Of a stretch of DNA of 64,000 nucleotides, positions 1-64,000 are shown piece after piece. Both the position numbers and the translations under genes were made by a program. Below the pieces are notes generated by a model that was given only the letters and a program-made list of their open reading frames with translations, was not told the origin of the DNA and searched no databases. Position 1 is the stretch's first letter; every line of letters starts with the position of its first letter. This stretch comes from Psammoneis japonica (taxonomy: Eukaryota), in the NCBI GenBank assembly GCA_008632985.1, contig QPGO01000025.1, positions 310,001 to 374,000 on the forward strand, written 5' to 3'.

Positions 1-539
1 CTCCGCCGGCGTTGATGCATCTGTCAACTTTGCAAATGTGCCTGCTCTCTCACGCCACACTCCTCTTCTTCTGGCTCCTCTCCAAACTTCTCTGCTTCCA
101 CCTGTTGTTGCTCTGCCCAAGTCTGTGCTGATGAGGACAACTTCCGCTCAGCCTGCTCCAAACTCCAAACTGGCCTCCACACTCCCAGCTGCCGCTGTCA
201 CTCCCAAGTGCCTCCCTGAGACATCCTCAAGCTCTGCCCTCCCCGCTCACACCCTTCCGACACACCCGATGCTCCCTCAACTTGCTCAGCCTCTTCTCTT
301 GACAATGAGCCCATTGAGCTCTCTGCTGGTGCTCTTCTCTCTGCCCTTTCCAACAAGTGCAAACCCGCGCTGATGCTGTCGGAGAGTGTTTGCCAGTTCT
401 CCACCAATCTTTTCAAGTCCTGCACTTTCTGCTCCACCAAAACTCCCACTGGTCATTCTCAACACCCCTGCTTGCCTTTTTTCTGGGAGCTCATCCTTCT
501 TCTCCTTCGCTGCTCTCTGTCCCTCCCTCCCCATCCACT

Positions 540-1063
540 GCGCCAAAATCCATTGAATCGGCAAGCTTTTTGTGACAAACGGCAGTTGACATTTTTGATG
601 GCATGCACATCAAAACCTCCTCTGCTGTAAAATGGCAGAAGCTTCCATTGTGATTCTGGCTGTTTTGAGGAACCCAGACGTCCTTGTCCAACTCAAAAAT
701 TTGCAGCAAAGCCCAAAGTTCGTCCTTTGTTGGCCTTGTCTCCTGTTCCGCTCTGTCGTCGCATTGCAATGCATCAATTGTTGTGTCATGGTTTTTTGGA
801 ATTAGACAACCAGACATTGCTCCTTCTTCATCTAAGTCCAGCAAGGCTGAATCCAGCTCAGCACACATGATTGCCAGACCAAAGCAACGACATGCTTTTG
901 CAAGGTGCTGGATGCCAAGCAAAAGCAGGAATGTGACAGACCACGTTGACAATGAGTCTTCATTGTTTTGCACTGCATTCAGCACACTCTTGCCCATGCC
1001 AAGCTGCATCTGATGACTTTGAAGATGCAAATCCAGACCCTTCCACACCTGCTTTGCACGCAT
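540..1063 (-). pseudogene. Degenerate transposase-like remnant (possibly PIF/Harbinger N-terminal part)
   Basis: Minus-strand ORF 491..1063 reads as protein-like (ELWALLQIFEL...FTAEEVLMCM.SKMST...DFG) inside a TA/CG-depleted block. The family assignment is a weak resemblance only. Confidence 0.25.
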
Positions 1064-2194
1064 GCACTCTTTGACCGCAGAGATGACATGGCGGCCCTTT
1101 TCTTTCGTGGCAAGCTCCGCCCAGAAACTTTGTGCCTCCTCCCTGTGATGGGATTGCGCTGAACCATGCTTGTTTCAATGCATGTGGCGCACCAAGGCAA
1201 TGACACATGCAATGTCTGCAATGCAGCAGACGTCATCCATCATGCACGCTTCGCTCCTTTGGTGGTTGCAAGCAACTCGATTGTTTCTTTGCCATTGCTG
1301 TGTCTTCAAGCCTCTGCACTCCACTTCTTGTTTGCAGAAAGGCTGGCACAAAACCTGCAGAAAAAATCTGGCGTGGGCTCCTTTTCACAAAATGATGGAC
1401 ATGACTGAATGTGAATGACCTTGATGGAATTCCCAGCTCATCTGACAATCGTGTTGTCATCATGGCTGTCATGCTTCTCCGCTCCTGAACAACAGTGGTG
1501 TTGCGTCCTGTGTCACTCATTGCCGCACATTGGAAACCATCTGCCTCAACATGTCATCATCAGAAAGAACACAAATGATGTCATCAGTGTGACATCAGGG
1601 TTCTCACGCCATCAAATGCCACTCCATTGGAGATTTGACACCCAGACCTGTTTTGGTGCATGCCTTCATGTCTGTAGAATGCACTGAAATGTCAATGGTC
1701 CAAATCAAATCATGTTTGACATCTCAAAAGTGTTCCCCCATTTTGGTTCCTTGCCAATCAGAGAAACGAGGTGCGACATGTGTCATTTTAACAAACAAAC
1801 ATGCTTCAATGATCACACCCAAAACTTGCACCTCATCTTCCAAACAAACCATTGGTGCTCACCCCCCCCATGGAACAAGCAGACTCTCTCTGCTTTCCAT
1901 TGATGCATCACATGTGGGGCTGTTGTTTGCACAAAATTTCAAGTTGTCATCAATGTTCAACATCGCGGCAGATGCACATGTGTTGGATGTCAATTCACTG
2001 TGCTGGCGGCATTCGTGCAAATGTTCCACCTGCAATGCAAAGACGCGTGGACGCCTGCCATGATGTCAAATTCAATGACATTGAAACGTTGCTTTTAAAA
2101 TTGCAGAGCCTCACAAACCTTTTTCAAGAAAATGACAGGCATGTGTCTGGTCACCCAGGTGGCTCTGGGTTTATGAAAAAAAGAAGAGGAAAAG

Positions 2195-5065
2195 GAGGAG
2201 GGAGGAGAGGAGAGATGCACATTCTCTGCAGTGCTTGCAATGCATTCAGCATGCATGACGCCCAGATGATTGGTGCTTCCGATGCACCAGTGGCCACCAG
2301 CTGGAGCGCAGTCGCAGCTCTCTGCTCTGCTCTGGCAAACACTGTAAAGAACAGCAACATGCCATTGCCCATCTAAATGCATCACCCACTGCTTCATTGC
2401 TCACGGAAAATTTACACGCCCACTGCCAATGCTGCCGTTGAGATGCAACCGCATGATTGGCCAAAACTCCATCACTTTTGACAGCCGGCTCCACCTCATT
2501 TCATCCATTTCCTCTCTGGACCCATCTGGATGCAGAAAGTTCCAGAAACAGATTTCCCCAAAACAACGAACAGTGTCAGAAGACTTGTGTCATGTGGAAC
2601 ATTGGCCCAGAAAGCCATTGTGTGAGATTTGGCAGTCAAAGATGTGCACACTGGAAAATGACAGGCAAAATGAAAATGTGAGTGGAACAACGCACACAAC
2701 AACAATCCATTGGGACCACACATCACAGTGCACTCATTGGAGCACCTTTTAGAGGGAGAGCTGGGTTGCCTTCCCAATTGCATGCTCCCAACTGCCACCA
2801 GCGGTTTGTGGCATCCTTGCATCCAAGAGGAGGCGATGAGCCCACCAACACAAGCCTCAACCTCCCCATTTTACCCACTGCAAAGCCTGGACCAGTCAGC
2901 ACACTGCCAAGATCTCCCCACACAACATGGACAACCTTGTGTCTCAGATGATGAAGAGAATGATTGACTGCAGAACAGGAAAAAAGGCTCATCACAGACC
3001 AGACACCTGCACGCATGTGAACGAGACGCACAAAAAAAAGGCTCGTGAGGTGTGCAAGTTTCATCAAAACAAGTCCAACACTCAAACAATTAGAGCACAC
3101 TCATGGGATTGCCTTTTTTGGACTGTGACAAGACTGTCTGACAATTGCCAACATTGCAAGTGTCCTCCAGGCTCCATCGCATTGTTTTGTTCCAATGGCA
3201 TGCACTTTCCAAAAATTGCAACGGCCGAAACATGACATGCTGTGATCACATGCTGACCAAGCCCCCAAGAAGGACATCAAGTGCATCACAAATCCATGTT
3301 CACACACACAACAGGTGCACCAAAGGATGCAGAGTGGGGCAAAGCATGAAGATCCCAAATGGATGCGCTTTGGCAGCACCAACGACTTGAAAAACATGCC
3401 AACATCACAGATGTCACAATCGACCACATGAGACGATCAATTGACCTTGCAAGCTGTGACAAAATGCAACAACAATCTTTGGCAAGCATTCAAACGGCAC
3501 AAAATGAGAAAACATAAAAAGAACTTGCCTCGGCGGCATTGTTGACCAGTCAGATGTCACCCGTGTCGCGCCACATTTGAGCTGCGAGTCGAGGCACGCA
3601 ACCGTTCATGGCATGTGCAGCAACCAAAAAGCACCCCAGGAGACCAAACCAATGCATCAACCTCTTTGTGACAATGACAGAAAGAGATCACCCATGAAAA
3701 ATGCGCCTGCCCCACAATGTTTGCCATGCTGAGATGCATCAAAGTGCAACGGCCGTGCATGGCCGGTTTCTTGTGGTGCGGCATGCCAAATCGGGAGCAT
3801 TTGAGTGGAATGAAGAAAATGAAGAGGATTCCCTCTTTTGTGTCATTGCACAACTTGTGCCAGATTGGACTGTTCATTTCTGCTTGTCATCACAGAAATG
3901 GAATTGTGTCATTGTGGGATTCTGCACAAGTTCCAGCACATTTCCCACACAGTTTGTGAAGAGCCACACCTGCACAGCTGGGTGATTGCCTGTTCTGGCA
4001 CATGTCTGGTCATGCAGGTGGCTCCAAGTTTGTGGAAAAAAGAAGAGGCAAATGAGGAGGAGGAGCGAGAGAGGGAGAGATGCATTTGCAGTTTTCAGTG
4101 TGTGTGCAATGCGTTCAATGTGCAATGTGCACGCACGATGCACAGATGGCCAGCGCTTCTGATGCAGTCGCAGCTCTCTGCTCTAGAGAGCAAACACTCT
4201 GTGGAACAGCAACATCCATGATCCATCCAAGTGCATTGTCTGCTGCTTCATTGCTCATGGAAAATTTACATGCCCACTGATGACACCACCGCTGAGATGC
4301 AACCACACGTCAAGCCAAAACTCAATCACTTTTTGCAGAACCGGCTCTGCCTCATTTCATCCATTTCGTCTCTAGACCCAACTGGATGCAGAAAGTTCCA
4401 GCATCTAATTTCCCACATCAACAAAGAACATCAAAAGACTCAAGTCATGGAGAGCATTGGTGTGGAAAGGCAACTGTGAGCCCTTGCAGTCAAAAACATC
4501 CATGCTGAAAAATGACAGGCAAAACGAAAATGTGAGTGGAACCACACACACAACAACCATCCACTGAGGCCATGTGTCACAGCGTGCTCCCTGTGACAGC
4601 TTCCAGAGGCAGCTCTGAGATGCCCCACCCAGTTTTAAGGCCCCATGTGCTGCCAGCAGTTTGTGGCATCCGAGCATCCAAGAGGAGGCAAGGAGGCTGT
4701 CAGGGCAAGCCTCCACCTCTCCATTTTATCCGGTGCAAAGCCTGGTCTTGTGGGCACACTGCCAAGATCTCCCCATGCAATGTGGATAAAATTGTGTCTC
4801 AGACAATGAAGCAAATTGATTGCAGAGCCAGAAGAAAGGCTTGTCATAGACCAGACACCTGCATGCATGAACGAGACACACAAAAAATGGCTTGTGAGGC
4901 ACACGACTTTCATCAAAATGACTCTAAAACTCAATCAATCACAGTGCACTCGTGAGATTGTCTTCTTTGGAGCATGTGAAGTTTGTCTGACAAATGCCAC
5001 TGTCACAAGCATCTCCAAGGCTCCATCACATCATTTTGTTTCCACGGCGTGCACTTTTGAGAAAT
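2195..5065 (+). repeat. Two diverged direct copies (~2195-3240 and ~4065-5065) of a ~1-kb degenerate repeat
   Basis: Shared blocks in the same order, e.g. gcttcattgctca.ggaaaatttaca.gcccactg, ggatgcagaaagttccag, aaaatgacaggcaaaa.gaaaatgtgagtggaac and agaccagacacctgca.gcatg. Confidence 0.75.
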
Positions 5066-6001
5066 TGACATCCTTCTGTGAGACAGTTGGATGGCAGGCA
5101 GACAAAGACAATTTGAGTCCCGAATGGTGGGGAACGAGAGCTGCCAACGCACCCTGCCTCAGGTGCAACCCCAAAAAAAACCAAAAAGCACTGTGCGTGA
5201 ATTGTGCCAGCCTGGACTGATGCAGTTCATTTGAAAGTGTCCACAACTCGGGGCCCCAACAAGAACTTGGGGGCTCCGCCATTTGCTGCCCTCCCGGTGG
5301 AAAACGTTGGCCACCTTTTCTGATTGCCAGCGGAAGAAGAACAGCGGTCATTGTTTGAAACCAAGATGGCAGTGGGCGATCCCACCCACAGGGGGCTGGC
5401 AGATGAGACAGCCACTGAGAAGGCTCTGCTCCGCAGAAGTGATGATGTGGAAGCAGCGGGTGACAGGTCTGGCTGGCGAGACCCACGCCACGCAGGCACA
5501 GACTGGCACAACTGCAATGACTGGCTTTTTTCAAGTGCGCACAATCACCACGCAACAGGAGCCCAAATAAAGTGAAAAATGAACAGAGCCCAATGCATGG
5601 CAAACAAAATGGCACAGTGCCGACTGCTGCCATCATCTTGCTTGGGAGACAATGCTGCAAAAAGCAAAGCATCAACTGCTTTGAATGACAAGATCAGCCG
5701 ACCAGTGACATCATCATTTTGAACATCAAGTCTGACAGGCACTGCATGGAACCAAATGAGAGATTGATCATTGAGGGCAGCATTGGTCATTGAGGGCAGT
5801 TGAAGGAGCTCAACTCCAGCTGGTTGTTCTTGAAGAACTGAGTGACTGCAGAGCACAGTGGAAACAAAGGTCTCTGAAAAGTCTTTCAGTCTTTTTTTTT
5901 AGGAAAGATCAATCCAGCCAGGTCCTCCGAGCAGAGAAAAACTGAAATTGAACTAGCAGTGCAGACTGCCACTGGAAGAACAAATGATCAGACCAGACAG
6001 C

Positions 6002-6203
6002 TGTGATTTGATTGCAGCCATTCTGCTGTTGTAACAATCAAAGGGCTAAGAAAATTGTGTGTTAAAATAGAATGTGAACTTTTAAAGTGCGCAGTTGGTC
6101 TCTTGTCGGAAGCAAGTGCGTCAGCAAAGAATCTGGCTCTTGAATCAAGTTCAAGGACTAGGACAGTTCGCCTGTCTGTCCGTTTGACCCTAGATTCATC
6201 ACA
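6002..6203 (-). repeat. 3' LTR of the Copia element
   Basis: Direct repeat of 11786-11987 with 6 mismatched bases and TG...CA termini. Confidence 0.95.
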
Positions 6204-6236
6204 CTCCCTCTCAAGAGCCAATGCAGCGTTGTTTCC

Positions 6237-9200
6237 TTGCCAACCAAGTGTGAACTTTCGATGCCGAACGAGCAACTCTAGTGACAAAGGCTTGGTCAAG
6301 CAATCTGCAGGCTGAGCCTCGGTGTCAATTTTCACCATCTCAATCTGTCCGCTCTGGACATGTGACCGGAAGTGGTGCAACTTGACATTGAGATGCTTTG
6401 TGCGAGGTCGGCACTTGTGGACTCGCGCCATCTCTGGCACACCGCTGTTGTCCTCGAACACTCTGCAATGGATCTTGGGTTCCGCTCGATCGATCGGAAA
6501 ACCCTCTGCTTTCAATTCTTTCAGCATCTCCATCAAAGGGATCGCCTCTTGCAGGGCATGGCTCAGTCCCGTGTGTTCGCTCTCAGTTGAAGAGAGACAC
6601 ATTTCTCCCTGCAACTGGGATTTCCACGTGACCGGACATCCACCGCACATAATGACACATCCATGTCTGGACCTTGCAGTGTCTGGATTCGAAGTGTCAC
6701 TCTTGTCGAAGTTCCCCGCAAAATCCGCATCCACATAAACCTCGAGTTCCTTGGACTTGGTTGGCCGCATGACAATTCCTTTGTCCCTCGTTCCCATGAG
6801 ATGCCTGCCCAACCACCTGATTGCCTTACCGTGCTCGACTTTTGGAGCTGCTGTGAACCTCGCGCACTGGTGAATTGTGCATGAACAGTCGCTTCGGGTG
6901 CCACGCTCCAAGCAACTCAATTTTCCAATCATGCTCCGGCAGTCGAAGCTGTTGTCAAAGTCTTCTGAGTCTTGGTGTCAACCCAAAATCACGGATGATG
7001 CAGCTGGAGTGTCTTTCGTCTTGGTGTTCTTCTGGAAGTTCAGTTGCTCCAGAATTTGATCCGCTTTCCTGTCAATGTTCACCCCAAGAAAATCTTGAAT
7101 GTCGCCTTCCTCCGTTGTGTTTAGGTCTGCGCTTCGCACATCTTTCACGACTTGATCAAGCTCCTTTTTATCTGGACCAGCAAGCAAAGAATCATCCGTG
7201 TAGAGGACGCACATGCACTTTCCTCGGAAGAAGACGCACTCATCATATTTCGACTGCTTGAAGCCGAGCTTGTTGACAAGTTTGTCCACGAGATAGTCGT
7301 TCCATGCTCGGCCAGCTTGTTTCTGACCGCATGCATTTCGATGGAGTTCGAGCACATAGTCCTCCGAGTTGCCATCTTCTACCTCGAATCCCTTGGGAAT
7401 TTTCATGCAGATCTCTTGCTCGACTGGGGCCTGCAGAAACGCCAGCACGTAATCGAGTTGCTTGGTGTGCCAATTGTTCATGGCCGAGAGAATTGGCAGC
7501 ATTCGGATCGAGCTCCACGAGGCCACAGGTGCACATGTCCTGTCCGGATCGTAGTGAATTGACTTTTTCATCCTTGACCCGTCGATGTTGAGCCTCGCCT
7601 TGTACTTTTTGACTTTTCTCGTCTTGATGTCGCGTTTCCGCTTCATTTGCCACACTGCAGGCAATGCTGTGGCATCCTTGGGGATCTCGGAAATGTGTCT
7701 CACCGAGAAGTTTCGGTTCCCGATCTGATCTTGGAATTCTTTTTCCATCGCCTTGACGAACTCCTTCGCATCTTTTTCCTTCATCGCTTCGTGGTGGTGC
7801 ATGGCATCTGGGTCCGCCGTCGACTTGCAGGCATGCAAGGGATCTTCTTCGGACAATTCTTGTTGAGGACAGAGAGATTCGAATCCGAAGATCTCTCCCT
7901 CCATCTCTCCAGTGCATTCTTCAGCTCTCGCTGGCGACTCGGCGGCATGTCTTGGGTTCGGTCTACTGACACGTCCCGATCTGGTCGTCACCAGAGGCAC
8001 GTCGCGTTGCGCTGCGTCTCGTTGTTGTGCTGGAGCTTCCACGTTAGTAGCGCGCTGTGGGTCTGCCTCCTGAGCACTGGTTGGGAGGTTGCTGTCCTCC
8101 CTCTGAGTTGGCGATTCGTTCTCGCCTTGTGTTCCATTCAAGCTCGACCCATCAGGCTCTTGGTCTGTTGGTCGGCTGTCGTCGGCACTCAACCACATGG
8201 GTTGTTCCCTAGAGGATTTTCGTTTTCTCCTCTTCTTGTGGCTCTTCTTGTTCGTGAGCCTCACGCTGTTTTCGCGTTTTCTGTTGTTGGGGGTCTCGGA
8301 TGCTCCGTCAGCCTGGCCATCGGCTGGTGGATCTTCAAAGCCTGCTTTGACCTTCCATCCGATCTTCCAGCGCTCTTGTTGCGCCATGTGAAAACTCGGG
8401 TCGAATCTTACATGGAATTGTGGGCTCACTCGTCCTGTTTCGATGTCGAGGACAAGTGCTGCATTTTGGCAGTGCACTGGCGATTGGCCAAGGTAAATTC
8501 CCACGTTGGACCTTTGCTTCCACTTGTTGAAAATGTTTCCCGTCTGAAGTGCTTCTTCTAGCACCGCCACAGGACACCCAAAAGGGTGACAGTGTTTTGA
8601 GTTTACATCCACTGCGGATGAAGTGAACAGCTGGCATGCGCTTCGGCTCGCTGGATCTTTCGGTGGTGGCGTCTCGTTCAGCGCTTGATTTGCCATTCGC
8701 AATGCGTGCGGCCAGAGGTGAGGCGAGATGGCTTGTGGCCACCTCTTGTTCGCGTGAATCAATTGCGTTCTCGCCAGGTCTTGCAGATCTCGCATTTTCT
8801 TCTCTGCAATTCCATTTTGATGATGCGCATTCACTCCGGCAAAGGCAAGTCCCTGCCTTTGTTCTCGAACTGCGTTCACCCATGCCTTCGCCTTGAAAAC
8901 ACCGTTGTCGGCATGACAGTGTCGGATTTTGATTCCACTTTCTTCTGCATGCTGCTCAAATGCTCTCTTCCCTCTCAACGTCTCTTCAGCAGAGCTCGTT
9001 TGCTGGAGGTGTGCGCATCCGCAGCCTGTGGCTTGGTCAACGCACACAGTCGCGTGGTTGTAGCGGTTTTTGGTGAGTGTCCCCGTGTTCTGTGCTGCTG
9101 GTCCAGGTGTGCTCGAGACCAGCATGTCGACTGACACGACTTGTCCCGGTCTCGTAGGTGCAATTTTGTTCCTGCTCTTTTCGGTCCTTGGTCTCCATGG

Positions 9201-10110
9201 GCGCTTTGTTTGCTTCCCACAAAGGCATGCCGAGCAGACTGGGACTGGGCACTTGGCCAGCGTGGGATCGATGAGCCTCATTTTCGCCATCTGTTGCAGG
9301 CGCTTGAATGACATGTGACTGAATTTGTGATGCAGCTTCAGCAGTTTGGTGGTTTTTGTTTCTTCACCTCCATCTTGTCTGTCTTCCTCATCTGGAACAA
9401 CTGCCACCGGACTGTCTTCATCCTTCTCCCCTTGCAGATCAAATTCGGTCTGCCGTGGGGCGGCCCAGTCGATGGGTTGGGCCGCGGTGTCCAATGAGTG
9501 TAGACCTGCTTTTTGAAGGTGGGATTCTGAGAGCGTTTCGTCGTCAGCCTCGTCATCGCCAACAAGGTGAGCTTCAGAATCGTGTGCAATTGTAGGATCG
9601 TCCTCGTCGTTCGCTGAAATTTTTGCCTCTTGACAGAAAGCATCACATTTGGAGCAGCCGGGAGCCAGGGCGAACGTGGCGACGTTTGATTTCGTTTTGT
9701 CGATCGGTGTGGTTAGCTTGTGCGAATGTTGGCTCCAATGCAAAACCGTTGCGCAATGGTTGGTGGTCTCCCCTGTCCCGCCAACTGCGTCTTTTTGAGA
9801 TTGCGCCCAGTGTTGTGGACTGGGCAGTCGCGCATCCTCGTCCGTGGGTGCGTAGAACGAGTTGGGGATGCGAAACTTGTGTCGTTTTCCAGTGTCGTCT
9901 GACCAGTTCCATGCGATTGTGCCAATCATAACTCCTTTCGTTCGTGTTCCTCCGAAACCCTTGATGCAGCGATTCGATTGTCACAACGGGCCTTCGAAAT
10001 CTTCGATGAACGAAGAAATGCATCCGGAACAGTGATTGTCAACGCCGACCGGGCCTCCATCAGTGTCGAAAACGACGTCATTCGTGCATGCTGGGCAGGT
10101 CTGAGCTTTG
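6237..10110 (-). pseudogene. Copia pol: protease-like region, integrase, RT and RNase H, frameshifted
   Basis: Motifs: VFDTDGGPVGVDNHCSGCIS (protease region), HHKFSH...CPVPVCSAC (GAG-pre-integrase), VSVD/HADNG/QNGIAE (DDE integrase), KARLNIDG, GQKQAGR and YTDD (RT), YVDADFAG, LSSTESE, FEDN and ADCLTKPL (RNase H). ORFs 6978..9929 and 5988..6932. Confidence 0.93.
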
Positions 10111-10478
10111 AATGCCAAAGCCGTGCACGCGGTCCACACATTGCGAATGCCTCGTGCCAAGTTCCATCGAGTGCACTTACGGCGTCGACACTTCACGATT
10201 GCTCCCTCTAGGGAGCGAATCCGTGCTCGCATGGCTTGTGCCTCTTTCCCGTTCGGGCTGCTCTCCCCCGTCCACATGGGATTGATGAGTTTTCAGCGCT
10301 GTTGGGATCGATCTCGGCATTCATGACGACTCTTGTTCCCAGATTTTCATCGGTTCATCGGATTGGGCCGGATTGGTGAAAGGCAGGCTAGAATGTACAG
10401 CAATGGCGACCAGATCGTCTTGTGGGACTTGTGGGCTGCTCCTGTCAATCGCCTCCTCCACGTGGGTGACGTTGACAG

Positions 10479-11740: not shown

Positions 11741-11785
11741 TGTCAGAATCCGCCGTGGTGCAATCAGCTTGTCGCAGAGGAAGCG

Positions 11786-48506: not shown

Positions 48507-48699
48507 CATGCCTCATTTGCTTTGCAATGAGTGCAGCTAGAAGGCACTGATGTGTGGGACACCCTTGGCACATTTGAGGCAAGCTCTGGATGTCGCGGCT
48601 CACAGCTGTTGTGTTTTGGAGTTTCCCATGGACACCGTTGGTCCAGCACTTCTTTGTTCCGCTTGTTTCTTGGTTGCACACAGGTTCTTCCCTGCAAAG

Positions 48700-53260: not shown

Positions 53261-54109
53261 GGATTTCATGGCCCAATAAAAACATGACTGCCCATGCCAC
53301 AATTCATGACAGAGAAGGTGTGTGGCCCACAGCATGCTGCACTCAATGGCCAGCATCTTGAAATGTTTGGCAACACACCTGCTGCTCTGCAGCAACACTT
53401 TCTTGCAAAGGAACAGTCACAGAAAATCCCTTCATCCTGGCACAAGCTCCAGTGCCAGCCATCACCATCAAGTTGAAGCAAAAGCATCTTTTGCCATTTT
53501 TGCTCCTGCACATCCTTCTTCATGAAGAAATTTTCAGGGAGCTGGGAGACTCTGGCCATCTCAGGTGTCTCTCTTTTCTCTCTTTTTTGCTCTGGGTGCT
53601 TTTAAATCTGTCATTGTCTCATTTTGCACAAGCAGGCAAGCACCACAACAGGTAAGATGCCATCTCTTTCAAGCTTCTGTTGCAGTGTTCAATCAAAGCA
53701 GGCTGCCTTGCTTTTCCCTGCTGCGCCCTCATGTGTCATCAAAGTCACTCACTGCCCTGCTTGGTCTCTCTGCACATCTGGAAAACATTGTGGCTCTTGT
53801 TGTTCAGAGCTCATTTGTGCTGAACAAAAGAACCCCAGGTTCTTGGCAAGTGCTTGTCAATTGTGAACAAAGCAAATTTGACAATTGTTTTTACACTCCA
53901 AGTGAGAAAATGTGCTCAAGAATCTGCAGGTCTCATTGCTCATTTGATCTTGACAAGATCACAGCCACAATGATTTTGACACAACTTGGTTCATGTCCAC
54001 AACCAAACAAACATGTGAAGCAGGAAATGACAACTGATGAAACTTGTGACTTGCAATTGATTGTTCTTGACAAGGGTGCAATTGTGGCTCCTTTCTGACA
54101 CTGTGCAGC

Positions 54110-55520
54110 ATGCATGCAGACAAAAGGTTATTTTGTCACGCCCTTTGTGACATTTGAAGGCTGTGGCACGTCGCCGTGATGCATCAACTCTCATCAGCAG
54201 CTGGTGCGTGATGGCTTGATTCGCACGATCCACAATGCGAACGCACGATCGATCCAATGCGATCCAAATGCAAGCGAATGGGGATTTGGCAAGATTTCCT
54301 GTTCGCACGATCCCATTTTCTCTGCTCTAAACTGGCCCACAATTTTCACAACGACAAAGTCGCAACACATCTTCTTTTTCAGCGCCTGGCACATGCGTGG
54401 GGCACAGTGATGTTGCTGTGCCCTGTGTGTGCGCTGGGCGCTGAAAAAGAAGATGTGTTGCGACTTTGTCGTTGTGAAAATTGTGAGCCAGTTTAGAGCA
54501 GAGAAAATGGGATCGTGCGAACAGGAAATCTTGCCAAATCCCCATTCGCTTGCNATTTGGATCGCATTGGGTCGATCGTGCGTTCGCATTGTGGATCGTG
54601 CGAATCAGGCCATCACGCGCCATGCTGCATTTAAAGGCTGCAACACGTCGCCGTGATGCACCAACTCTCACCAGTGGCTGTGTGTTGCACTCCTCCCCAT
54701 GCACCACGCGTCCATGCAGCTCTTTGCTGACGTGCACTGACACTGCATGGTTTTGGCGGAACAGTGTGGGTGCGTGCGAAGGAACACACAGAACTGCACA
54801 GAGTTTTGCGCGCATGCAAAGGGCGTGACAAAACAACCTTTTGTCTGCATGCACACTGCGTTGTGAATTCACAGCGGAGTGGTTCATCTCGCAACCACCA
54901 GGCAGGAGGCCAGGGGTTCGAAACCCTGAGTGGGAGTTGTCTGCAGCAACGTTGATCACTGTCGAACGCGCAAAACTCTGTGCAGTTCTGTGTGTTCCTT
55001 CGCATGCACCCACACTGTTCCGCCAAAACCGTGCAGTGTCAGCACACGTTAGTAAAGAGCCGCATGGACGCGTGACACATGGGGAGGAGTGCAACACACA
55101 GCTGCCAACAAGAGCCAATGTATCACGGCGACGTGTTGCAGCCTTTAAATGTCACAAAGGGCGTGACAAAAACAACCTTTTGTCTGCATGCATGCTGCAC
55201 TGTGAATTCACAGCGGAGTGGTTCATCGCAACCATCAGGCAGGAGGCCAGGGGTTCGAAACCCTGAGTGGGAGTTGTCTGCAGCAACGTTGATCACTGTC
55301 GAACGCGCAAAACTCTGTGCAGTTCTGTGTGTTCCTTCGCACGCACCCACACTGTTCCGCCAAAACCGTGCAGTGTCAGCACACGTTAGTAAAGAGCCGC
55401 ATGGACGCGTGACACATGGGGAGGAGTGCAACACACAGCTGCTGATGAGAGCCAATGCATCACGGCGACGTGTTGCAGCCTTTAAATGTCACAAAGGGCA
55501 CGACAAAACAACCTTTTGTC
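54110..55520. repeat. Nested inverted and tandem repeat complex: spacerless ~420-bp palindrome (54202-54622), second inverted repeat (~54628-54812 vs ~54967-55152) and ~338-bp tandem units
   Basis: The arms are reverse complements around 54411/54412. caaagggc..gacaaaa recurs at ~54817, 55155 and 55493. One N at 54554. Confidence 0.9.
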
Positions 55521-57649
55521 AGTGGCTGTGTGTTGCAACTGCTCATTTCTGACAGTGACAACATTCATTTGTCTCATTGGGGTGCTCTCACATTGGCTGT
55601 GTGCTGCTTGCAATGTGATTTGTGCTGGCTGTGTTTGATCATTTCCACAGTGAATGTGTCTTTGCTTCCTGGTGTTTCCTGCTCTTCCCTCCCTGGCTTT
55701 GTCCTGTCTCCTGCCAGCGCTCCCATGCCACAGTCATTCTCTGTCTTCAGATGGTGCATGGTGTGATGTTTTGCTCCTCACTGCATGGTCCCTTGCAACC
55801 CCTCTTGCTCACCACAACGAAGTCATTCATTCCATGTTGTGACCTTGTCCCTTTTGCTTGTCGTGCCAGTTTGCCAAAGCATCACCTGCAAAGAAGAGAG
55901 AGCCAGCAACAGATCAGTGCATTGTGTGTGTGTGTTTTGCTTCACAAATGGGCTTGGCGCAAATGGCGTTTCTGTTCGCCCTTGTGTGCGACCTTGTCTC
56001 TTTCATTTTTCATGCCAGTTTGCCAAAGCGTTGCCTGCAAATGAGAAAAAAGAGAAAAGAGCATGCAACAGATGAGAGCACAAGCCATGTGCACTGGCAC
56101 AAAAGTTGCGCAGAATTTTTGCGCAGAAAAATCACAAAAATCAGGGTTTGGGCCAATTTTTTTATGCTTCTGTTGTGCTTCTCCACTCCACTGACTCCTC
56201 AAGGAACCTTTTTCCCCTGAAACCATCGACACTTCACATGATGGCTTTTGCATGAGTGACATGATTCCAAGCACTGACATGTTCCGTTCTCAGAATTTTG
56301 ATCAACACCTCATCATGGGCCAACTGTGGTGAGCACCATCCAACAATGGAGTTTTGCTGAATGATGGACATCACCATGTTTGTCATGAAAAAGCAGGTGT
56401 GCAAAGCATCAGCCACTGCAACTGAAATTGATTCCTTGAGGTCATGGCCTGTTTTTTGCAAAGCATGGGAAAAGCACAATGAACAAGATGTTCTACATGA
56501 ATTTTCTGCGTGAGTTTTGTGCCAGAAATTGGCCCAAACCCTTTTTTCAGAGCTTGTGCCCCCTGCACATGGCTTGTTGCATGTGTTTTGTTTTGAACGT
56601 GCTTGGCACAAACGCTGTTTTGCTGCTCTCACCTTTGCAGCCATGGTTCCTGCAGGGCCATCTTCTCTTCTTGCTCCCCTCAAATGTCGACATGTGTTTG
56701 AGTGGAAAGATTGGCAAAAGGTCGGTTGTTTGCACTGTTGCCCAAGCTCTGCACACTTGCCAACTCAGTTCCTGTCTCTCTCTCACCTTGTGTCCCACAT
56801 TGTCCCCCCCCCCTCTGCTCTTCTGTGCCTTCCCTTGTGCTGCTGTCATTGTCATGATGTTGGATGAGCCCTGTGTTTTGTGTTTTGTGAGGCAATGATG
56901 ATTTGTGCTTTTGTGGCAATGTTGAGCCTGTCTGCTTGGTGATTCCTGTCAGCATCTTTTTTTAAGTGAAAATTTTGTTTTAAAATTCCACGCTCACCCT
57001 CAGTTTTGAAGGTTTGGACAATTTGAAATGACTTGAATGAATCATTCAGTCATCAAGGATTTGCATGTGTGCCTGCAGTCAGTCAATTTCTCATTTTTTG
57101 TTGGCACATTAATGTGCTCCTGTTAAGATGGAAATTTTTACAGTGTTGCTGCCACACAACATCTTTTTTCAATGCTCTGGAACTTCAATCTCTTCACAAC
57201 CTGCTTGACACCCAACAACCACATGTTTTTTGGTGTGTTGCAACAACGCTGCCAAAAAACATGTGAGCTGCCCCTGTGGAGGCAGTGGCAGCCATCCTTG
57301 TGCTGCCAACCACTCCAAAGCCGGCAGTGCTCTTGGCCATGGTGATGAATGCAGGTGGGAGCAGCACATCTCAAGCTTGACCTCAGCCACAAGAGCACAG
57401 CAGGAGGAGCCCTTGGAGAAACCAAGGCTCTGTTGCCAGAGCTGCTGCAGCACCAGCTCACAACCCAGCAACTTCTGCCGCTGCTGCCGCTGCTGCTGCC
57501 TCCATCAACAACAAAGCCACAGCCCACCATGCCAACACAGCCAATGACCCTCACTCTCCAGCCATCCCACCCACCAAGGATCTTGAATTTCTCATGCATT
57601 GGCACAAAATTTCCGTGGTTGTTGTTGCATCCCCTGGCACCCAATGGAG

Positions 57650-58470
57650 TCTCCCACAGCCATCCAAAGACAACTGAGCACTTGCGCTGTCACACAGATG
57701 GCTCCCCAGTCTCTGCAGGGGTGTGGTGGCTGGTCCAAAGCCAGCCATGTCAGAAAGAAAAGGGGCTGTGCATTGACACAAGACAAGGCCTTCTCTCTCC
57801 AACCAAAGTTGTTGTTGGCTCCTCAGGGGCACAATGGAGTCACCCAAGGCCATCTAAAGACAACTGGGCACTTGCATCGTTGTCACACAGAAAGCTCCCT
57901 TGTCTCTGCAGGTGGGGTGGCTGTGCCAAAGCCAGTCATGTCAGAAAGAAAAGGGGCTGTGTCAACACAAGGCAAGGCTTTTGATCCCCAACCATGGTTG
58001 TTGCTGGCTCCCCTGGGGCACAATGAAGTCACTCAAGGCCATCCAAAGACAGCTGGGCACTTGCACTGTCACACAAATGGTTCCCTTGTCTCTGCAGGTT
58101 GGCTGGCTGCTGGCTGGGCAAAAGCCATTCATGTCAGAAAGAAAAGGGGCTGCGTTGGCACAATTCCAAGACAATGGCACACCTCCTTTGCCACATGTGT
58201 GGGCCTGATGCTTCCACACCTTGTGCAGCTGGGCATCTTCCTGTTTGTGGAGCCACACAAGGGGCTGCTGCTGCTCAGCAAGACAAGACTTGCGCTGACC
58301 AATTGCTGCAGTTTGCATGTCTCCAAGGCTCAACTGGAGTCCACCAATGCTGTCCCCCCCAAGACAACTGCACACCTCCTTTGCCACATCTGTGGGCCTC
58401 ATGCTTCCACACCTTCTGCAGCTGTGCATCTTTTTGTTTGTGGAGGAATCACACAAGGGGCTGCTGCAGC
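57650..58470 (+). repeat. Degenerate tandem repeats (~190-bp period, 3 copies) followed by a second short duplication
   Basis: catgtcagaaagaaaaggggctg occurs at ~57746, 57937 and 58130. cacacctcctttgccacat.tgtgggcct.atgcttccacacctt occurs at ~58178 and 58371. Confidence 0.8.
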
Positions 58471-59869
58471 CCAAGACAAGGCTTGCAGCTTCCCAAATCA
58501 AGAGTGCAAAGATGCCACAATTGGACCAACCCACTCAGCAGCTGCAAACTGAGTGCATTTGGAGTGCATGTTGTGCAGGCAGCAACTCAAATCAACATGC
58601 ATTGATGGCAACAATGATGATCTGGCTCTGCATTTGGCAAAAAAAATGTTTGCTGGGACATGGGGACACCACCACATGCTCTGTTTTAGTTTCTCAAGCA
58701 GCGCCGGCATCTGCACTGTCCACCATCCACACATCAAGCCTGTTGCTCCAATCTGAGACACCAAGACATGTCATCAAACTCACCACCAGAAGGTTGACTG
58801 CCAAATTCCATGAGTGGTGCATCTGCCAGAGTGGGGTTGCCAACATCTTGGAGAGACATGGCCAAGTTGCCCGCCGCTGGCTTTGTGGCACTGCAATTGT
58901 TGCCATCATCCAGTGTTGTCTGCAGCTCATTGCATGGTGCACAAGACATCCCTCACCCATCAACAACAATGCCAACATCACCACCCACCCTGCCATTGTT
59001 CACAAAGCTGCCAACCTGCTTGCAGGACAGGTGTGCTCAAGGGTGAAACCAAGGGTGACAAAGCCAACCAAGTTGTGTCATTTCACACAGTGGCAAGTTT
59101 TTGGATTCTGGTTGCCTCCAGCCAAAATGGGGCACAGCAATGGCAGATCCAGGACATTTGCATTCACTGGTCAGCAGGAGCCACACATGCTTCATGAGCT
59201 TCATCACCTGAATTAGAAAGTTCTGCCTCTTCTTGGGCAATCCCAAACCAGACTCCACATGATTTGTTGGGTTGCCGGAGCACCCCCACTCAGCATGCTG
59301 AACAATTGCAGAAGCTGTGTTTTGTCAGGGGTGACATCGACAATCCACAAGAACTTGGGCCACATTGATCAATTGAACATGAAGTGAACCTTTTGGAACA
59401 GAGAATGCATGGCCAATGGAGTGTGGCCATTGTTTTCATTTGTGATGGTGACAGGGAAGATGAAACACTTTTCCCAGTCTCTGTCATCTGGTGATGGCTT
59501 TCCAAGCAGTGGCGCCATTGCTTGCTTCATGCCTTGGTCAGTTTCTTTGGCAACCACAGCAAAAACCTGAGCAACTCTTCCTGCTGTTCCCCCAGTGCTT
59601 CTCTTCCTGCAGCACTGGAAACATGTGCTTGCCAAAGAACTTGTCAGGGTTCAGGCCCAAATGGAACAATGAAGAACACTGCCATTGAAAATGTCAGCAG
59701 AGAGCATGCTTGTCATCATCATTGTTGTTGTTGTTGTTGTCAGGAAGACATCCAGCCAGGACTGAGTGGACTGCAGCAAGAGCGTGCCATTGTTGTTGGT
59801 GGATGTTAGATCAGAGAGGATGAGTTGTGCAGTGTTCAACAGGAAAAAGGACAAATGCAGCAGAAACAG

Positions 59870-61430
59870 AGCAAAACAAAGGCAGACAGCTGACAAATGG
59901 AAGGAAAATGGAACAAATGAAGCTGTTCTTGAGAAGTTTAAAATGAGGACAAAATGAGCCACACAGGCAACATGAACAAAGGCAGAGATCTGACAAATGC
60001 AGGGAAAAGGGAACAAGCAAAGCTGTTCTCAACAAGTTTAAAATGAGGACAAAATGAGCCACACAGGTGACTCAACAAGATGCTTTTGGGCCACATCTGT
60101 GGGGCCATTTTGCTGTGAATTTTTACAAAAATGCTCACAACCCACAAAATCAATTTTTCTTCTTTCCAAAATGCAGACACGCAACGCAACTCAAGTCAAC
60201 CATGGATCGGTTGCAACGGTGGCAACATTTGGCACCAAGTGCAAGAAACTCCTGGAGAGCATGTTAGAACCTCATTGTGATCACTGATCACAAGGTGTGG
60301 GTCCCAGAGAAAGGCATCTTTGCCCAATGCTCCCAATCATCATCTGAGCTTTTCACTGACTTTCTTTCTTTTTTCTGCATCCAACATGACAGCAAATGTT
60401 TTAAAGATCTGAAGTGGAATGTGTTGTGCAGGTGCCCATGACTTGGACAAAATGCGTTCAACCAAGATGATGCAGAAAGAGGCACAAGCTCATTTTTTTG
60501 CAGTGTTTTCATTGTCAAAAACACAAAAGCAAGTGCAGCAATCCTTGCTTGTCATGATCAATTTCAACAATCAAATTGACTCAATGTCTGTGCAGTCAAA
60601 CTGTCCAAAGTTTCAATCAATGGCTCAAATGCCCCCTTCTGTGACTGAGTGAGACAATCTTGGGCAGTCATCAGGTGTCAAAAATCCATGCAAAGTTCCT
60701 GAGAAGCCGCAAGCAGTTGGACCTTGGGCCCTGTGAATGTGCCAGCTCTTCTGACCAAATCAACTCACAGCACTGCTTAAATTGTTCACTTTGTCTGCAA
60801 AGAGGCATTTTCAAGTGGTCAATTTTTCTAAGATTGGGGTCAAACTGCAGAAAATGCCATTGGCAACAGGCAAATGATGATTGCTGGCCAGAACCCTTCT
60901 GTCAGACACCCATTTTTTTCATTTTGCATGCACAGAATGATGCACAGTTTGTCAACAACACAGATTGAACACCCCGCAATGGTCCAGGAAGCATCTGCCC
61001 CCACACAGAAGGATGCAAAACATGAGCAACAGCAAGAGTCAACAAGCACAGTCAGCGCCATTTAATTGCTGAAGTTGATTTGATCCAGGACTTGGTGAGT
61101 GTGCAGGCAGCTCTCTCTGCTGGGCTCCAAGCAACAGAAATCATTGCTGCGACAATGAAGACAGCTTTGTGAAAGAGCAATTTGACAGAGTGGCACAGAC
61201 TGGTGCTGTCAACAGCCAATTGTGACTGGGAGCTGTGTGCCATGACCTCAAGGAGATGCAACATGCCACAACAGATTCAACCAGCAAAATCTGGCATGCA
61301 AAGAAAACTTTCATGCAAGCCACACAGGCAACTTGAACAAAGGCAGAGAGATCTGACAAATGGAGGGGAAAAAACCAAACAAAGCTGTTCTTGTCAAGTT
61401 TAAAATGTGGGCAGAATGAGCCACACAGAG
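59870..61430 (+). repeat. ~100-bp unit in tandem at 59870-60070 with a third copy at ~61320-61430
   Basis: aagctgttct...aagtttaaaatg.gg.ca.aatgagccacacag occurs three times. Confidence 0.75.
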
Positions 61431-64000
61431 GCACAACTTAAGAAACAAGCAAGAAAGATTCAACCATTCATGACTTGCAAGCTGTCAAGAAACAAAATCA
61501 ATGTCAGTGCAAATTGACGATCTGTGAATGTGATCAGCACAAATGTGAAAATTCAATTGTTGATGAGTGACTCTCTGGCCAAGCACGGAAACATGTCACA
61601 GACGCAGCTGGAGCACTTTTTTGGCTCTTTCTCTTTGTTTTGCAGCTCCCCCCACCTCATGTTTGGCAAGCAAACAACACATTGTCCCCTGGGTTTGGAG
61701 CTTGAGCGTTGTTGTGGACAGAGCCATTTCTTGTTTTGTCATGTCAGGCAAGACCCCCCCCCCCTGCTCAAGTGTTCTTCTGAAGATGCCACCTCCATGG
61801 TGACCCCAAAGAGCTTGTCTCACTGGTGCTTGCAGAGATGCCATGCTCTGCTGCACATGTTTGCTCCTCCACTGCTTGCAGTTTTTGCACAAGGAGCCTC
61901 CACAACTTGGTTGATGACTTGGGGCTCAGCACCTTGAAAAAACTCACCTTGAAGAAGAAAACAAGCACTCCTTTTGTTTTTTTTGGTTGCCCCCTAAGAT
62001 TTTTTGTTGCTTGTTTTTGAACAAATCCATTCACAATCACCGTGTGGCAGTTGCAGAGCACACAACCACACAACAGACTGCCAGAGAAAACAACAACAAC
62101 AACGCATGCACCACACAGCAGGTCCGTCCAGGCTTTGAGAAGGCAGACACTGTGCAGAAAACATGTTGGCTCTGGTGCCTTCTGGGGTGCATTGCAAAGA
62201 TGCTGCTTTGTTCTCAAAGGTGCTTGGTGTGTTTTTTCTCTGTTCCCAAAAAAGAGGGCCAGAAATGAAAAAAAGGTGCTTGCTTTTTGGGCTGGTTTTT
62301 GCAAGGCATTTTCAAAGGTGCAAGCACAGCATTGTTGCACTTTTGCACAAAATGTGCAGTGTGCAGCAGCTGCCAGCTGTTTTGCCAAGTGGCTGAGTCT
62401 TGATTTCCATTGAGTGGGCAGCTTCGCAGGTGGCGCAACCTGTTCTGATGCACAGGTGAAAGACTGGGTGTGGAGTGCAGAGGCATCATCATGCAGACTG
62501 CTTGCACAGGATGGCATGGGCTGCAACTCTCAACAGTGCATGATGTGTGGCCAAGTTGCAACTGGGCTCCCTCACCAGTTTGATGGAAGAGGGAGAGCTG
62601 GCCAGCTTTGCTGTGGAGGAAACTGCTTGGGTGTCTGGGCGGCCCTTGCAAGGTGCCAGTTTGCCCAGAAAGCTGTCCTCGTCAATGAAAAATGTGCACA
62701 CTGGACCCAAAGAATGCCTGGGTTCTGTGGCATGCAGCTGGCAAGCCCCCCCAGGTTCCAAAACAGAGTTGTGAGACATTGCAGCTTTGCCAGTGCTTGC
62801 AGAGAACCTCAACTTCAAAAGAAGTTGCTCTGAGCCACTCACCAGCATCTTTCCGCTGAGATCACAGCACAATGTTGCTTTGTTCAAGGCAAGAAATGAC
62901 AGAAAAATTTTGGCAGAGTGCTGATCCTGTGCCTGTGGAGTCCACATGAGCTGCAACAGCCACAATGGTGGCACCACAGCCAAGGGCAACAAGGGGTGCA
63001 ACACACTTCAGGCATGCACACCAAGCAGATGGGCAAAACTCCACCAGCTCTTCCAAAGCTGAAATCATTGCCAGAGATGGCATCACAACAAAGGTTTTGG
63101 TGTGAGCCAAATGTTGTCAACAGAGACATCCAGCAGAGTGCCATCAAATGACGGGTGGAAAACAACAAAGAGCAGCAAGGAAACACCAGGAAAACACCCA
63201 CACAACACTTCTGCATTGAGCACTTTTACAATGTTGTTTGTCTTGCCAAGCATGGTGAAAGTGAAATGCTGCTCTCTTCCATTGGACCAGATGAAAGTTG
63301 AATGTCAGCAAAACGTCAGCTTGCCACACACATTGCAAGACTTTCAATGAGTGTCATTTGGGTCAACACAAGGAGTTGGTTGCAAGAAGAGAATTTTGGC
63401 AGGTCCTGTTGGTGCCAGCAGGAGAGTGAGTGAGAGCACAGTTTTTCCAGAAGCCCATGCAAAGGCTGAGCTTCCCTGCCAAGTTGGTCACCAGGTGTGC
63501 TGGCATTTTTGAAAGACCACCATGGTGCAGTTGATTTTTGCTCAAGAGAGCTGTGCACTCATGCACTGGCTCTCTTTCAACTCTTGGGAGAACAAGTGCA
63601 ACAGAACTTTGCATGCCCAGCTGCCCTCTGAAGTGCCCTCTTCAGTGGAAGGACTGCAAAACATTCAAAGAAACAAGATCTTCTTGAGGGTGACATTTCT
63701 TTCTCCATGAGAGGGCACAGATTGAACATGCCTTTTGTGGTGTGCAGGTGTGCAGGCTTTGTCTGTCTTGTGCTTTTTGATTTTTTTGCACATGTCCATG
63801 ACTCAAAATGACCAGACACTGTTGGTTGTCACACAGATGGCAGAGCCAGTGCACTGAACCAAAATGACGGGTCTGTTGCACACACAATTGGCGAGCATCC
63901 CTGGGTTCTAAGTCAGAGCAAAGATTGCCCCACCACACCATTGCCAGCACTCCAAGAAGATGTGATGCTTTGCAATGCCAGCACTGCCATGCTGCACAGC

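Follow-up and report, generated by a model that had tools for sequence, protein, structure and literature searches.

The stretch of Psammoneis japonica DNA described here (GenBank assembly GCA_008632985.1, contig QPGO01000025.1, positions 310,001-374,000 of the forward strand; 64,000 nt, hereafter the window) raises the question why the dinucleotide TpA (TA) is nearly missing from some of its blocks and present at ordinary frequency in others. An earlier note on the same DNA had ascribed the pattern to a conversion of TpA to TpG or CpA (TG or CA) that is restricted to repeats and may serve genome defence. All composition results given below refer to this 64-kb window, and targeting means targeting inside it. 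A locally targeted and directional conversion of A:T to G:C at TpA, acting on integrated DNA, is very probable in the light of these results. The whole explanation, i.e., targeted TpA mutation of silent integrated DNA by adenine deamination, is assigned a probability of roughly 0.6.

The window contains 1224 TA dinucleotides (observed/expected ratio (o/e) 0.30), and the shortfall is clustered in blocks. Calculated per 1-kb window, the TA o/e was 0.00-0.19 at 1-12 kb, 0.04-0.12 at 14-17 kb, 0.07-0.23 at 19-27 kb and 0.00-0.12 at 49-64 kb; at 27-48 kb it was 0.41-1.13, except for 43-44 kb (0.24), where a short repeat block is located (43.1-43.9 kb). TG and CA reached o/e values of 1.6-2.1 in the strongest blocks (1-kb windows), and the GC content of the TA-poor blocks stayed at 0.49-0.53. 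The blocks of transposable elements (TEs) retain 182 TA in 36,991 nt, whereas 200 mononucleotide shuffles yielded 2255 +/- 35 (minimum 2162). The longest run free of TA measures 1335 nt (49931-51266), compared with 187 nt in the gene island at 27.75-43 kb. At a resolution of 250 nt the block edges are sharp: the TA count drops at 13.75 kb (12 to 1) and at 48.5 kb (10 to 0) and jumps at 17.25 kb (1 to 12). The blocks and the island that serves as internal control are the following (LTR, long terminal repeat; LINE, long interspersed nuclear element).

1-6001, no strand assigned: old multi-copy repeat block; TA o/e 0.03-0.14, CG o/e 0.29-0.48; read depth 313-2383 over 1-5336.
6204-11785, minus strand: internal region (gag-pol) of a Ty1/copia element; RVT_2 (3.6e-38) and gag_pre-integrs; TpA-hypermutated, CpG intact.
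14900-17250, no strand assigned: old multi-copy repeat block; TA o/e 0.04, CG o/e 0.13-0.24; read depth 245-1146.
19437-27200, minus strand: LINE-like non-LTR retroelement; TA o/e 0.07-0.23, CG o/e 0.70-0.96.
27750-43000, no strand assigned: gene island, internal control; PAP2/PDCT, glycosyltransferase, Abhydrolase_3, SNF2 and ARM (Pfam).
43100-43950, no strand assigned: left remnant of an old block split by the young element LTR2; 0-4 TA per 250 nt (43001-43750), CG o/e 0.24-0.61.
48507-64000, no strand assigned: largest TA/CG-erased block; 52 TA in 15.5 kb, CG o/e mostly 0.05-0.22.

In the following, 'heavy' blocks are those at 1-6 kb, 14.9-17.25 kb and 48.5-64 kb taken together, and 'mid' blocks are the copia internal region and the LINE-like element. 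The pooled TA o/e was lowest in the heavy blocks (0.05) and low in the mid blocks (0.14), as opposed to 0.62 for the gene islands. The sliding-window ratios of TA, CG and TG/CA, run on the window, as well as the shuffles thus agree with the earlier note, which had described TE blocks nearly devoid of TA and rich in TG/CA beside gene islands of ordinary composition; TpA loss is limited to blocks. Read depths were taken from Logan contigs, which stem from a k-mer assembly that was not produced by the submitters; contigs of two runs of one sample were aligned to positions 1-20000 at a likeness of at least 80%. This sample may be the assembly's own source, and the contigs are therefore not independent chemistry. 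Depth in run X1 is about 57 for unique DNA but rises to 2383 within 1-5.3 kb and to 1146 within 14-17.3 kb; among the old blocks, multi-copy status by read depth refers to these two intervals.

The direction of change was determined for the copia element at 6002-11987, which comprises RVT_2 with the integrase upstream and is flanked by 202-nt direct LTRs terminating in TG..CA; it has an imperfect target-site duplication (GACAG, with an offset of one base). Its depth in run X1 is 120-240. The internal region has a TA o/e of 0.13 (39 TA in 5.6 kb) and a CG o/e of 0.90. A tblastn comparison of 6240-10193 yielded 53% identity over 1352 amino acids (aa) to the copia polyprotein P0121, and among the 120 matches listed a single copia relative is named, from the diatom Cylindrotheca closterium. 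Alignment columns were regarded as conserved if at least 70% of 40 homologues agreed. Regarding the 24 columns with conserved Tyr, the window shows Tyr in nine, Cys in nine, His in three, Phe in two and Ala in one, whereas the other classes of conserved residues are kept at 68-100%, with Val replaced by Ala in 5 of 27 columns and Leu by Pro in 2 of 44. These replacements are what the changes GTA to GCA, CTA to CCA and TAY to TGY or CAY predict. In a comparison with 120 homologues the window keeps Tyr in 9 of 22 columns, whereas the lowest proportion in any homologue is 0.77 and the median is 0.93. Moreover, 80 environmental copia loci have a median TA o/e of 0.68 (range 0.34-0.90), as opposed to 0.13 in the copia element of the window. 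From the loss of conserved Tyr together with this environmental baseline, it follows that the elements began with normal TA content and lost TA afterwards.

The six peptide strings quoted in the earlier note as examples of such changes are all present on the minus strand, and their comparison with the consensus of 12 relatives indicates Tyr to Cys, Tyr to His and Val to Ala (e.g., YHADNG to CHADNG, NVYGQKQ to NACGQKQ and SEYTGLSYAL to SEHTGLSHAL). On the sense strand of the copia element, the gains in TG (+11.8 per kb) and in CA (+11.7 per kb) are equal. The polyprotein frame contains just two TGA codons across 3.9 kb. No sense codon is turned into a stop codon by TA to TG or CA, and the only change among stop codons is TAA to TGA, which is why frames stay open.

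For the LINE-like element, direction of change refers to amino-acid composition alone: its open reading frames (ORFs) encode 0.6-1.3% Tyr, 3.3-3.7% Cys and 3.8-4.7% His. The matches to Exo_endo_phos (2.4e-4) and RVT_1 (4.8e-3) are both weak and lie under the Pfam cut-offs, and the reverse transcriptase (RT) ORF yielded no match at E <= 1 when compared with the PDB sequences.

The two LTRs of one retroelement insertion are identical at integration, so differences within a pair record what happened to the DNA later. Two pairs are available in the window, that of the copia element and that of LTR2.

6002-6203, minus strand: 3' LTR of the Ty1/copia element; 97% identity to 11786-11987, TG..CA ends; 7 TA kept, 5 of them in TAA/TAG-only contexts.
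11786-11987, minus strand: 5' LTR of the Ty1/copia element, pair of 6002-6203; 11 TA kept.
43951-44317, plus strand: 5' LTR of the young element LTR2; 98% identity to 48140-48506, TG..CA ends, CATG target duplication.
44318-48139, plus strand: internal region of LTR2; TA o/e 0.43-0.91 with 200 TA, i.e., TA-normal.
48140-48506, plus strand: 3' LTR of LTR2, pair of 43951-44317.

LTR2 has LTRs of 367 nt, a purine run resembling a polypurine tract before the 3' LTR and a low GC content (0.38-0.45); a fragment matching RT_RNaseH (4.9e-5) lies slightly under the Pfam cut-off. The element is nested in an old block erased of TA and CG and is itself barely affected, and the sharp edge at 48506/48507 is explained by the age of this insertion. 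Over the 569 aligned nt of both pairs, all 12 differing sites are of TA type, and neither another substitution nor a gap was observed. Five of these sites belong to the copia pair (TA versus CA at three, TA versus TG at one and a TG-versus-CA double at one) and seven to the LTR2 pair (TA versus TG at six and TA versus CA at one). The chance that all differences fall in TA sites is 2.8e-6 and 2.5e-6 for the two pairs, respectively. The 13 changed bases are exclusively A/G or T/C differences. They correspond to 13 changes at 164 target adenines, compared with none at approximately 870 bases outside TA and CG; none of the 26 CpGs per copy (52 over the two copies) was altered. Because the LTRs were identical at integration and the pairs differ at TpA, the change was made in the DNA after integration; TpA mutation acts on integrated DNA. 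Together with the conversion of conserved Tyr to Cys or His in the copia element and in a UbiA gene fragment described below, the 12 of 12 LTR sites bear out the conversion of A:T to G:C at TpA that the earlier note had deduced. The LTR events lean to A>G on the sense strand (10, versus 3 T>C), which is not significant (p = 0.092) and is explicable by the T-A-Y context treated next, bulk copia sequence showing equal gains of TG and CA. A practical consequence is that dating by LTR divergence goes wrong where TpA sites are counted.

Not all TA sites appear equally vulnerable. Regarding the survival of xTAy tetranucleotides in heavy blocks relative to the islands, the highest ratios were found for TTAA (0.58) and CTAA/TTAG (0.40), followed by GTAA (0.12), CTAG (0.08), ATAA (0.06), CTAC (0.04), ATAC and ATAG (0.01 each), and ATAT and GTAC (0). 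The residual TA sites in the 48.5-64 kb block are flanked 3' by A or G on both strands in 37 of 51 cases, compared with 99 of 595 in the island. Counted per target adenine, the changes between LTRs amount to 0/38 in TAA, 5/36 in TAC, 3/32 in TAG and 5/58 in TAT, with Fisher p = 0.040 for TAA versus the rest. The TA sites that outlast the others are those in TTAA, YTAA and CTAG. Tentatively, these frequencies suggest a target preference in the order 5'-T-A-Y, TAG, TAA.

A second process contributes to the excess of TG and CA. The CG o/e is 1.02 in the main island (27750-43000, in which TA, TG and CA have o/e values of 0.62, 1.14 and 1.13), 0.86 in the mid blocks and 0.24 in the heavy blocks, falling to 0.05-0.22 across most of 48.5-64 kb (1-kb windows). 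In a mass balance that takes the dinucleotide ratios of the island as the starting state, 877 TA and 1105 CG are missing from the heavy blocks versus 1913 extra TG plus CA, and 331 TA and 146 CG are missing from the mid blocks versus 354 extra TG plus CA. The flood of TG/CA reported by the earlier note is thus present, but about half of it in the oldest blocks is CpG decay and the other half TpA loss, since the heavy blocks have also lost CG. The copia and LINE-like elements underwent TpA loss nearly alone, with little CpG decay. That CG falls and TG/CA rises in the heavy blocks is the feature expected of decay at 5-methylcytosine (5mC); this decay is separate from the TA loss, for which it does not account because deamination of 5mC cannot remove TA. 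Both processes turn a palindromic dinucleotide into TpG/CpA in silenced repeats, and both operated in the oldest blocks; 5mC decay, however, leaves TA, whereas the copia and LINE-like elements lost TpA at a CpG o/e of 0.86. According to PMC9998398, diatom TEs carry 5mC via DNMT5a, with which the CpG half of the excess fits. The TpA process is the faster one, given that the LTR pairs differ at 12 TpA sites and at no CpG and that the mid blocks are poor in TA with CpG intact. The blocks would accordingly form an age series in which the youngest insertions differ only at TpA, middle-aged elements lack about 80% of TpA with CpG intact, and the oldest blocks lack both.

The old blocks also contain duplicates that bear on symmetry. 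The pair 3997-5067/2138-3218 (1.1 kb) shows 32 double differences of the type TG versus CA, and 43519-43705 resembles 56389-56576 at 76% with 12 such doubles (188-nt pair); doubles of this kind are expected if a palindromic dinucleotide is changed independently on opposite strands. Comparison of the window with the other copies represented in run X1 yielded 271 A>G, 351 T>C, 356 C>T and 282 G>A differences, compared with 34-59 for each type of transversion. Among 40 of the 1636 differing sites (selected by support), the window has TG or CA where the others have CG at 17 and where the others have TA at 6; the reverse case, CG in the window, occurs at 2. TA-free stretches of the window recur in unbranched X1 contigs, namely at 15280-16360 (6 other letters, 7 gaps) and at 11986-14414 (8 other letters).

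Which DNA is hit, and which is spared, can be judged from single-copy sequence next to the repeats and from repetitive sequence in the gene island.

13729-14385, minus strand: C-terminal fragment of a UbiA-family prenyltransferase gene; Pfam UbiA 2.1e-16; single-copy, TpA-hypermutated.
18534-19286, minus strand: Methyltransf_16 gene (METTL21-like lysine methyltransferase); Pfam 2.4e-22; unique depth.
40285-41404, no strand assigned: GC-rich (0.68) minisatellite; units of 54-82 nt; TA and CG kept.

The UbiA fragment corresponds to just the C-terminal ~210 aa of its homologues, which measure 430-490 aa, and the N-terminal half of the gene was not found nearby. It sits in a TA-free run (13760-14580) and is single-copy, the X1 contig covering 11986-14414 having a depth of 57.6 and the bin 13341-14007 likewise 57.6. 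Its six columns with conserved Tyr contain Tyr once, Cys twice, His twice and Phe once, and the overall proportion of Tyr is 0.5% versus 3.2% in the homologues. The block that the earlier note had delimited at 13.6-17.2 kb as TEs therefore starts with a single-copy gene fragment. A possible further case is the Methyltransf_16 gene, which lies 150 nt away from the LINE-like element and has a TA o/e of 0.22 and 0.8% Tyr; the D-x-x-Y motif conserved in METTL21 aligns to DLLC. TpA loss may have spilled over into this host gene. The minisatellite, on the other hand, retains 41 TA (27 expected). GTAC, which is absent from the 23.8 kb of heavy blocks, accounts for 21 of them. The minisatellite centers on the palindrome GTCCCCACGTGGGGAC (CACGTG core) and gives rise to overlapping pseudo-ORFs in three frames. 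Repeats are thus the main targets, as the earlier note had stated, but its restriction of the process to repeats does not hold: the single-copy UbiA fragment is hit, the minisatellite is exempt and LTR2 is TA-normal. Judged from the composition of these features, the target looks like silenced TE territory plus the DNA engulfed by it, rather than repetition as such.

The earlier note knew of no description of such a system. The signature has, however, been described in the chlorarachniophyte Bigelowiella natans, where integrated viral DNA undergoes hypermutation at TpA (Mettrop et al., bioRxiv 10.64898/2026.01.13.699255). According to this preprint, 231 of 302 nuclear mutations in mutation-accumulation lines fell in two viral insertions, one of a nucleocytoplasmic large DNA virus (NCLDV) and one of a virophage; 230 of these 231 were A to G or T to C, all at TpA. 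Rates in the inserts were about 1000 times the background, and the process was active in 11 of 15 lines. The preprint also reports 324 TpA-depleted coding sequences enriched for RT and DDE domains as well as 124 clusters of depleted windows, proposes an ADAT2-like DNA deaminase and cites reports of DNA activity for the ADAT2 of amphioxus and trypanosomes. Its double threshold (TpA depletion plus CpA+TpG enrichment) is passed by 25 of the 64 1-kb windows analyzed here. Features of the B. natans type found in the window are the restriction to transitions and to TpA, the confinement to regions and the clusters of windows poor in TpA and rich in CpA+TpG; as far as the preprint describes them, the two cases share the change of A:T to G:C only at TpA, foreign or silent DNA as its site, TpA depletion with CpA/TpG enrichment and the possibility that single-copy DNA is a target. 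They differ in the host (a chlorarachniophyte versus a diatom-like stramenopile), in the main targets, which here are retrotransposons and old repeats with a TA o/e of 0.05 versus 0.45 for the NCLDV insert of the preprint, and in the kind of evidence, i.e., a measured de novo rate there and comparative sequence evidence here. The main text of the preprint treats neither the 3' neighbor, nor diatoms, nor co-decay of CpG; its supplementary mutation table may bear on context. In the literature found, TpA hypermutation is described in this preprint only, and no report from a diatom was found. The present finding is therefore an extension of a process described in 2026 to diatoms and ordinary transposons and is not categorically new.

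Older defence systems resemble it in part. Repeat-induced point mutation (RIP) of fungi likewise produces dense transitions in repeats with a dinucleotide footprint, leaks into unique DNA and disables TEs in place. RIP, however, changes C:G to T:A, mainly CpA to TpA, and thereby creates TA and lowers GC, the opposite of what is seen here; it makes stop codons, which the TpA process cannot; and it needs duplication, whereas here a single-copy fragment was hit and a tandem array spared (diverged paralogues of the fragment may exist elsewhere). As an explanation of the window, RIP was rejected, TA being lost rather than raised and GC staying at the level given above. The statement of the earlier note that neither 5mC deamination nor RIP explains the loss of TA accordingly stands, the direction being opposite to RIP and CpG being intact in the mid blocks. 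ADAR and APOBEC3 share with the present case dense context-dependent transitions that disable retroelements, and ADAR also the change of A to G and the preference for a 5' U/T; but both act on RNA or on complementary DNA before integration and in a strand-specific manner, whereas here integrated DNA is changed on both strands, and APOBEC3 causes G to A rather than A to G.

In the mechanism proposed here, adenine located 3' of T on either strand of integrated nuclear DNA would be deaminated to hypoxanthine, and the change would be fixed at the next replication, so that TpA becomes TpG or CpA. The deaminase would be recruited to silenced chromatin, its targets being LTR and non-LTR retroelements, old repeats and the stranded fragment of a single-copy gene, with gene islands and the minisatellite spared. 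Proteins would be disabled without breaks of the frame, by replacement of Tyr and of some Val, Leu and Ile. Adenine deamination as the chemistry of TpA loss is our best guess, held tentatively and at slightly below an even chance. In tRNA, A34 follows the invariant U33, and the target loop of bacterial TadA reads U-A-C-G. TadA and ADAT2-ADAT3 would share this natural 5'-U-A context, a 3' pyrimidine preference would echo the TadA loop, and by this analogy they appear to be the most concrete enzyme candidates. That TpA hypermutation is an old, SAR-wide arm of defence (stramenopiles plus Rhizaria), exerted by a deaminase derived from TadA/ADAT2 with an ancestral U-A-Y preference and recruited to silenced chromatin, is a speculation that we consider unlikely on present evidence.

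Several other processes could lie behind the same footprint. The thymine of 5'-TpA in silenced DNA might be modified enzymatically, e.g., oxidised to 5-hydroxymethyluracil (5hmU) or 5-formyluracil or hypermodified by an enzyme of the JBP/TET type, and the modified base would then mispair with G or undergo error-prone repair to yield T to C; since TpA is self-complementary, this would leave exactly the observed footprint, and R-T-A is an equally valid reading of the T-A-Y preference. Base J in the telomere repeats of kinetoplastids and 5hmU in dinoflagellates occur preferentially at T before A. On the other side, 5hmU pairs normally with A and is not strongly mutagenic, and to our knowledge modified thymines of this kind have not been reported from diatoms; the diatom literature on N6-methyladenine (6mA) contained nothing on TpA, although no search was aimed at thymine modifications. 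We regard this chemistry as improbable. Only a little less credible is a symmetric heritable mark at TpA such as 6mA that decays spontaneously, like 5mC at CpG, without a dedicated mutator. The palindromic target, the shared territory with co-occurrence of both losses in the oldest blocks and the spread into flanking single-copy DNA, as would be expected of a chromatin mark, all speak for it. The very high rate speaks against it, though, as young LTR pairs combine 12 changes at TpA with none at CpG and about 80% of TpA is gone from the mid blocks, and known eukaryotic 6mA is located at ApT rather than TpA. Moreover, the process in B. natans is episodic, with 2-45 mutations in each of 11 lines out of 15 according to the preprint, which fits a regulated enzyme better.

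The remaining explanations are much weaker. If a modified base at TpA were systematically misread, the genome would really contain TA, and with one sample of a library type that is not on record a consistent miscall would fool all tests at the sequence level. The independently made X1 contigs, however, reproduce the TA-free stretches unbranched and at unique depth; a strand-specific miscall would be expected to cause disagreement between TG and CA on the two strands and broken contigs, and a mixed consensus would be expected to yield CG, yet CG is depleted. Furthermore, members of the same family differ from one another at individual sites, and the Illumina mutation-accumulation data of the preprint show that the process is real in B. 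natans, which leaves such an artefact very improbable. Much the same holds for ADAR-like UA editing of retroelement RNA or double-stranded RNA that becomes genomic by reverse transcription. The 5'-U preference of ADAR, mentioned in the discussion of the preprint, the purged TA set shared by the copia LTRs and the A>G lean of the LTR events would suit it, but as a sole cause it is refuted by the fact that the LTRs of a single insertion differ from each other, since such differences arose after integration; in addition, a single-copy fragment that is not a retroelement was hit, the TG and CA gains on the sense strand of the copia element are equal and the lean lacks significance. Patches of DNA polymerase eta, which the earlier note had named as a candidate on account of its WA to WG signature, GC-biased gene conversion, a natively TA-poor composition and selection against UA in TE transcripts can each lower TA or raise GC locally. 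Polymerase eta is contradicted by AA, which is not depleted in the TE blocks (o/e 1.28-1.29), and by the absence of any of the 13 changed LTR bases from AA contexts; gene conversion is not specific for dinucleotides and would not yield 12 of 12 sites at TpA; and neither native composition nor selection explains the conversion of conserved Tyr to Cys/His or the differences between LTRs. Taken together, these processes have a negligible probability.

Adenine deamination in silent integrated DNA, the reading preferred here, has to be held against several observations that do not favor it. A symmetric lesion on the T side would leave the identical footprint. The sequencing platform is not on record, which makes a chemistry-specific miscall unlikely rather than impossible. 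The context order depends on 13 LTR events and on islands whose ancestral composition may differ, and the trinucleotide test on the product side is not clean, TAT falling by 12.6 per kb while TGT rises by only 1.3-2.8 per kb. Most TA sites of the copia LTRs are common to both copies and lie in resistant contexts, which indicates a family already partly purged before this insertion; the model leaves this unexplained, and either mutated copies are still mobilised or an extra phase before integration exists. Finally, none of the 80 environmental copia loci has a TA o/e below 0.34, which speaks against a general process; the loci were retrieved by Tyr-containing peptide patterns and the 120 proteins are gene calls, so that mutated copies are under-sampled. 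The lowest of the 80 values belongs to a metagenome fragment of 1063 nt (L045; TA o/e 0.34, CG 0.09, TG/CA 1.67), which may be another partly TpA-depleted and CpG-decayed copy.

Targeted A:T to G:C mutation against mobile elements was unknown before the 2026 preprint, which deals with one rhizarian alga. The same signature in a diatom-like genome would mean that it is not a curiosity of one species, and it is far more extensive here. What the window adds to its anatomy is the LTR clock, the hierarchy of contexts, the way in which TpA loss relates to CpG decay, and its extension into unique DNA, all of which can be tested. Diatoms are ecologically dominant and genetically tractable and thus a place to seek the enzyme; a naturally occurring adenine deaminase that acts on DNA in a defined context would be of interest for base editing. 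If the SAR-wide arm existed, transposons, integrated viruses and engulfed unique DNA would be rewritten by it, and it would be a major force in the decay of diatom TEs.

TpA loss also has consequences for annotation. Long ORFs overlap one another on both strands throughout the TA-poor blocks; they are spurious because TA-erased repeats are nearly free of TAA and TAG stop codons, and the translated products are poor in Tyr and rich in Cys and His. Among the 288 ORFs scanned (138 of at least 100 aa, and 150 of 55-99 aa from the repeat blocks; 48 ORFs of 55-99 aa beyond 58.5 kb were left out of the scan), none in the heavy blocks matched a Pfam family at its cut-off, which leaves these blocks unassigned to any TE family, and Rfam yielded no match at its gathering thresholds. 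Erased repeats thus escape Pfam, and their pseudo-proteins can mimic zinc-finger or deaminase motifs; the enrichment in Cys and His probably accounts for the two sub-threshold matches observed in the largest block. One of these is a zf-CCHC match at 52013-52204 (minus strand; 20.5 bits, cut-off 20.8), which may alternatively be a remnant of gag. The other is a weak match to an OTT_1508-like deaminase at 49933-50139 (minus strand; 18.8 bits, cut-off 27), probably a chance result of that enrichment.

Within the same block, internal copies in palindromic and in tandem arrangement lie at 54.2-55.5 kb and at 57.6-58.5 kb. Those of the first interval include a near-perfect palindrome of 432 nt (92%) with adjoining direct and inverted copies (88-95%) at 54197-55520, and the lone N of the window (54554) is located in its right arm.

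Regarding the affiliation of the host genes, the gene island includes a multi-exon gene of the SNF2 family (33526-36821, plus strand), the Helicase_C half of which is barely recognised by Pfam (E = 0.0072); it belongs to a clade in which nearly all of the named members found were diatoms. The best named relatives of its SNF2 exon are all diatoms, with Attheya sp. first (57%), and further relatives belong to Seminavis, Nitzschia, Thalassiosira, Conticribra, Cyclotella, Mayamaea, Skeletonema and Amphora; other ochrophytes scored far lower, and no match to Bigelowiella was among the relatives found. By these similarities the host genes are diatom-like, and the host is apparently distant from the sequenced species in the libraries searched. 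The island also contains, at 42221-42584, two tandem units of 181 nt (95%) with normal TA content, which differ in the ordinary way by two transversions and four transitions, one of TA type.

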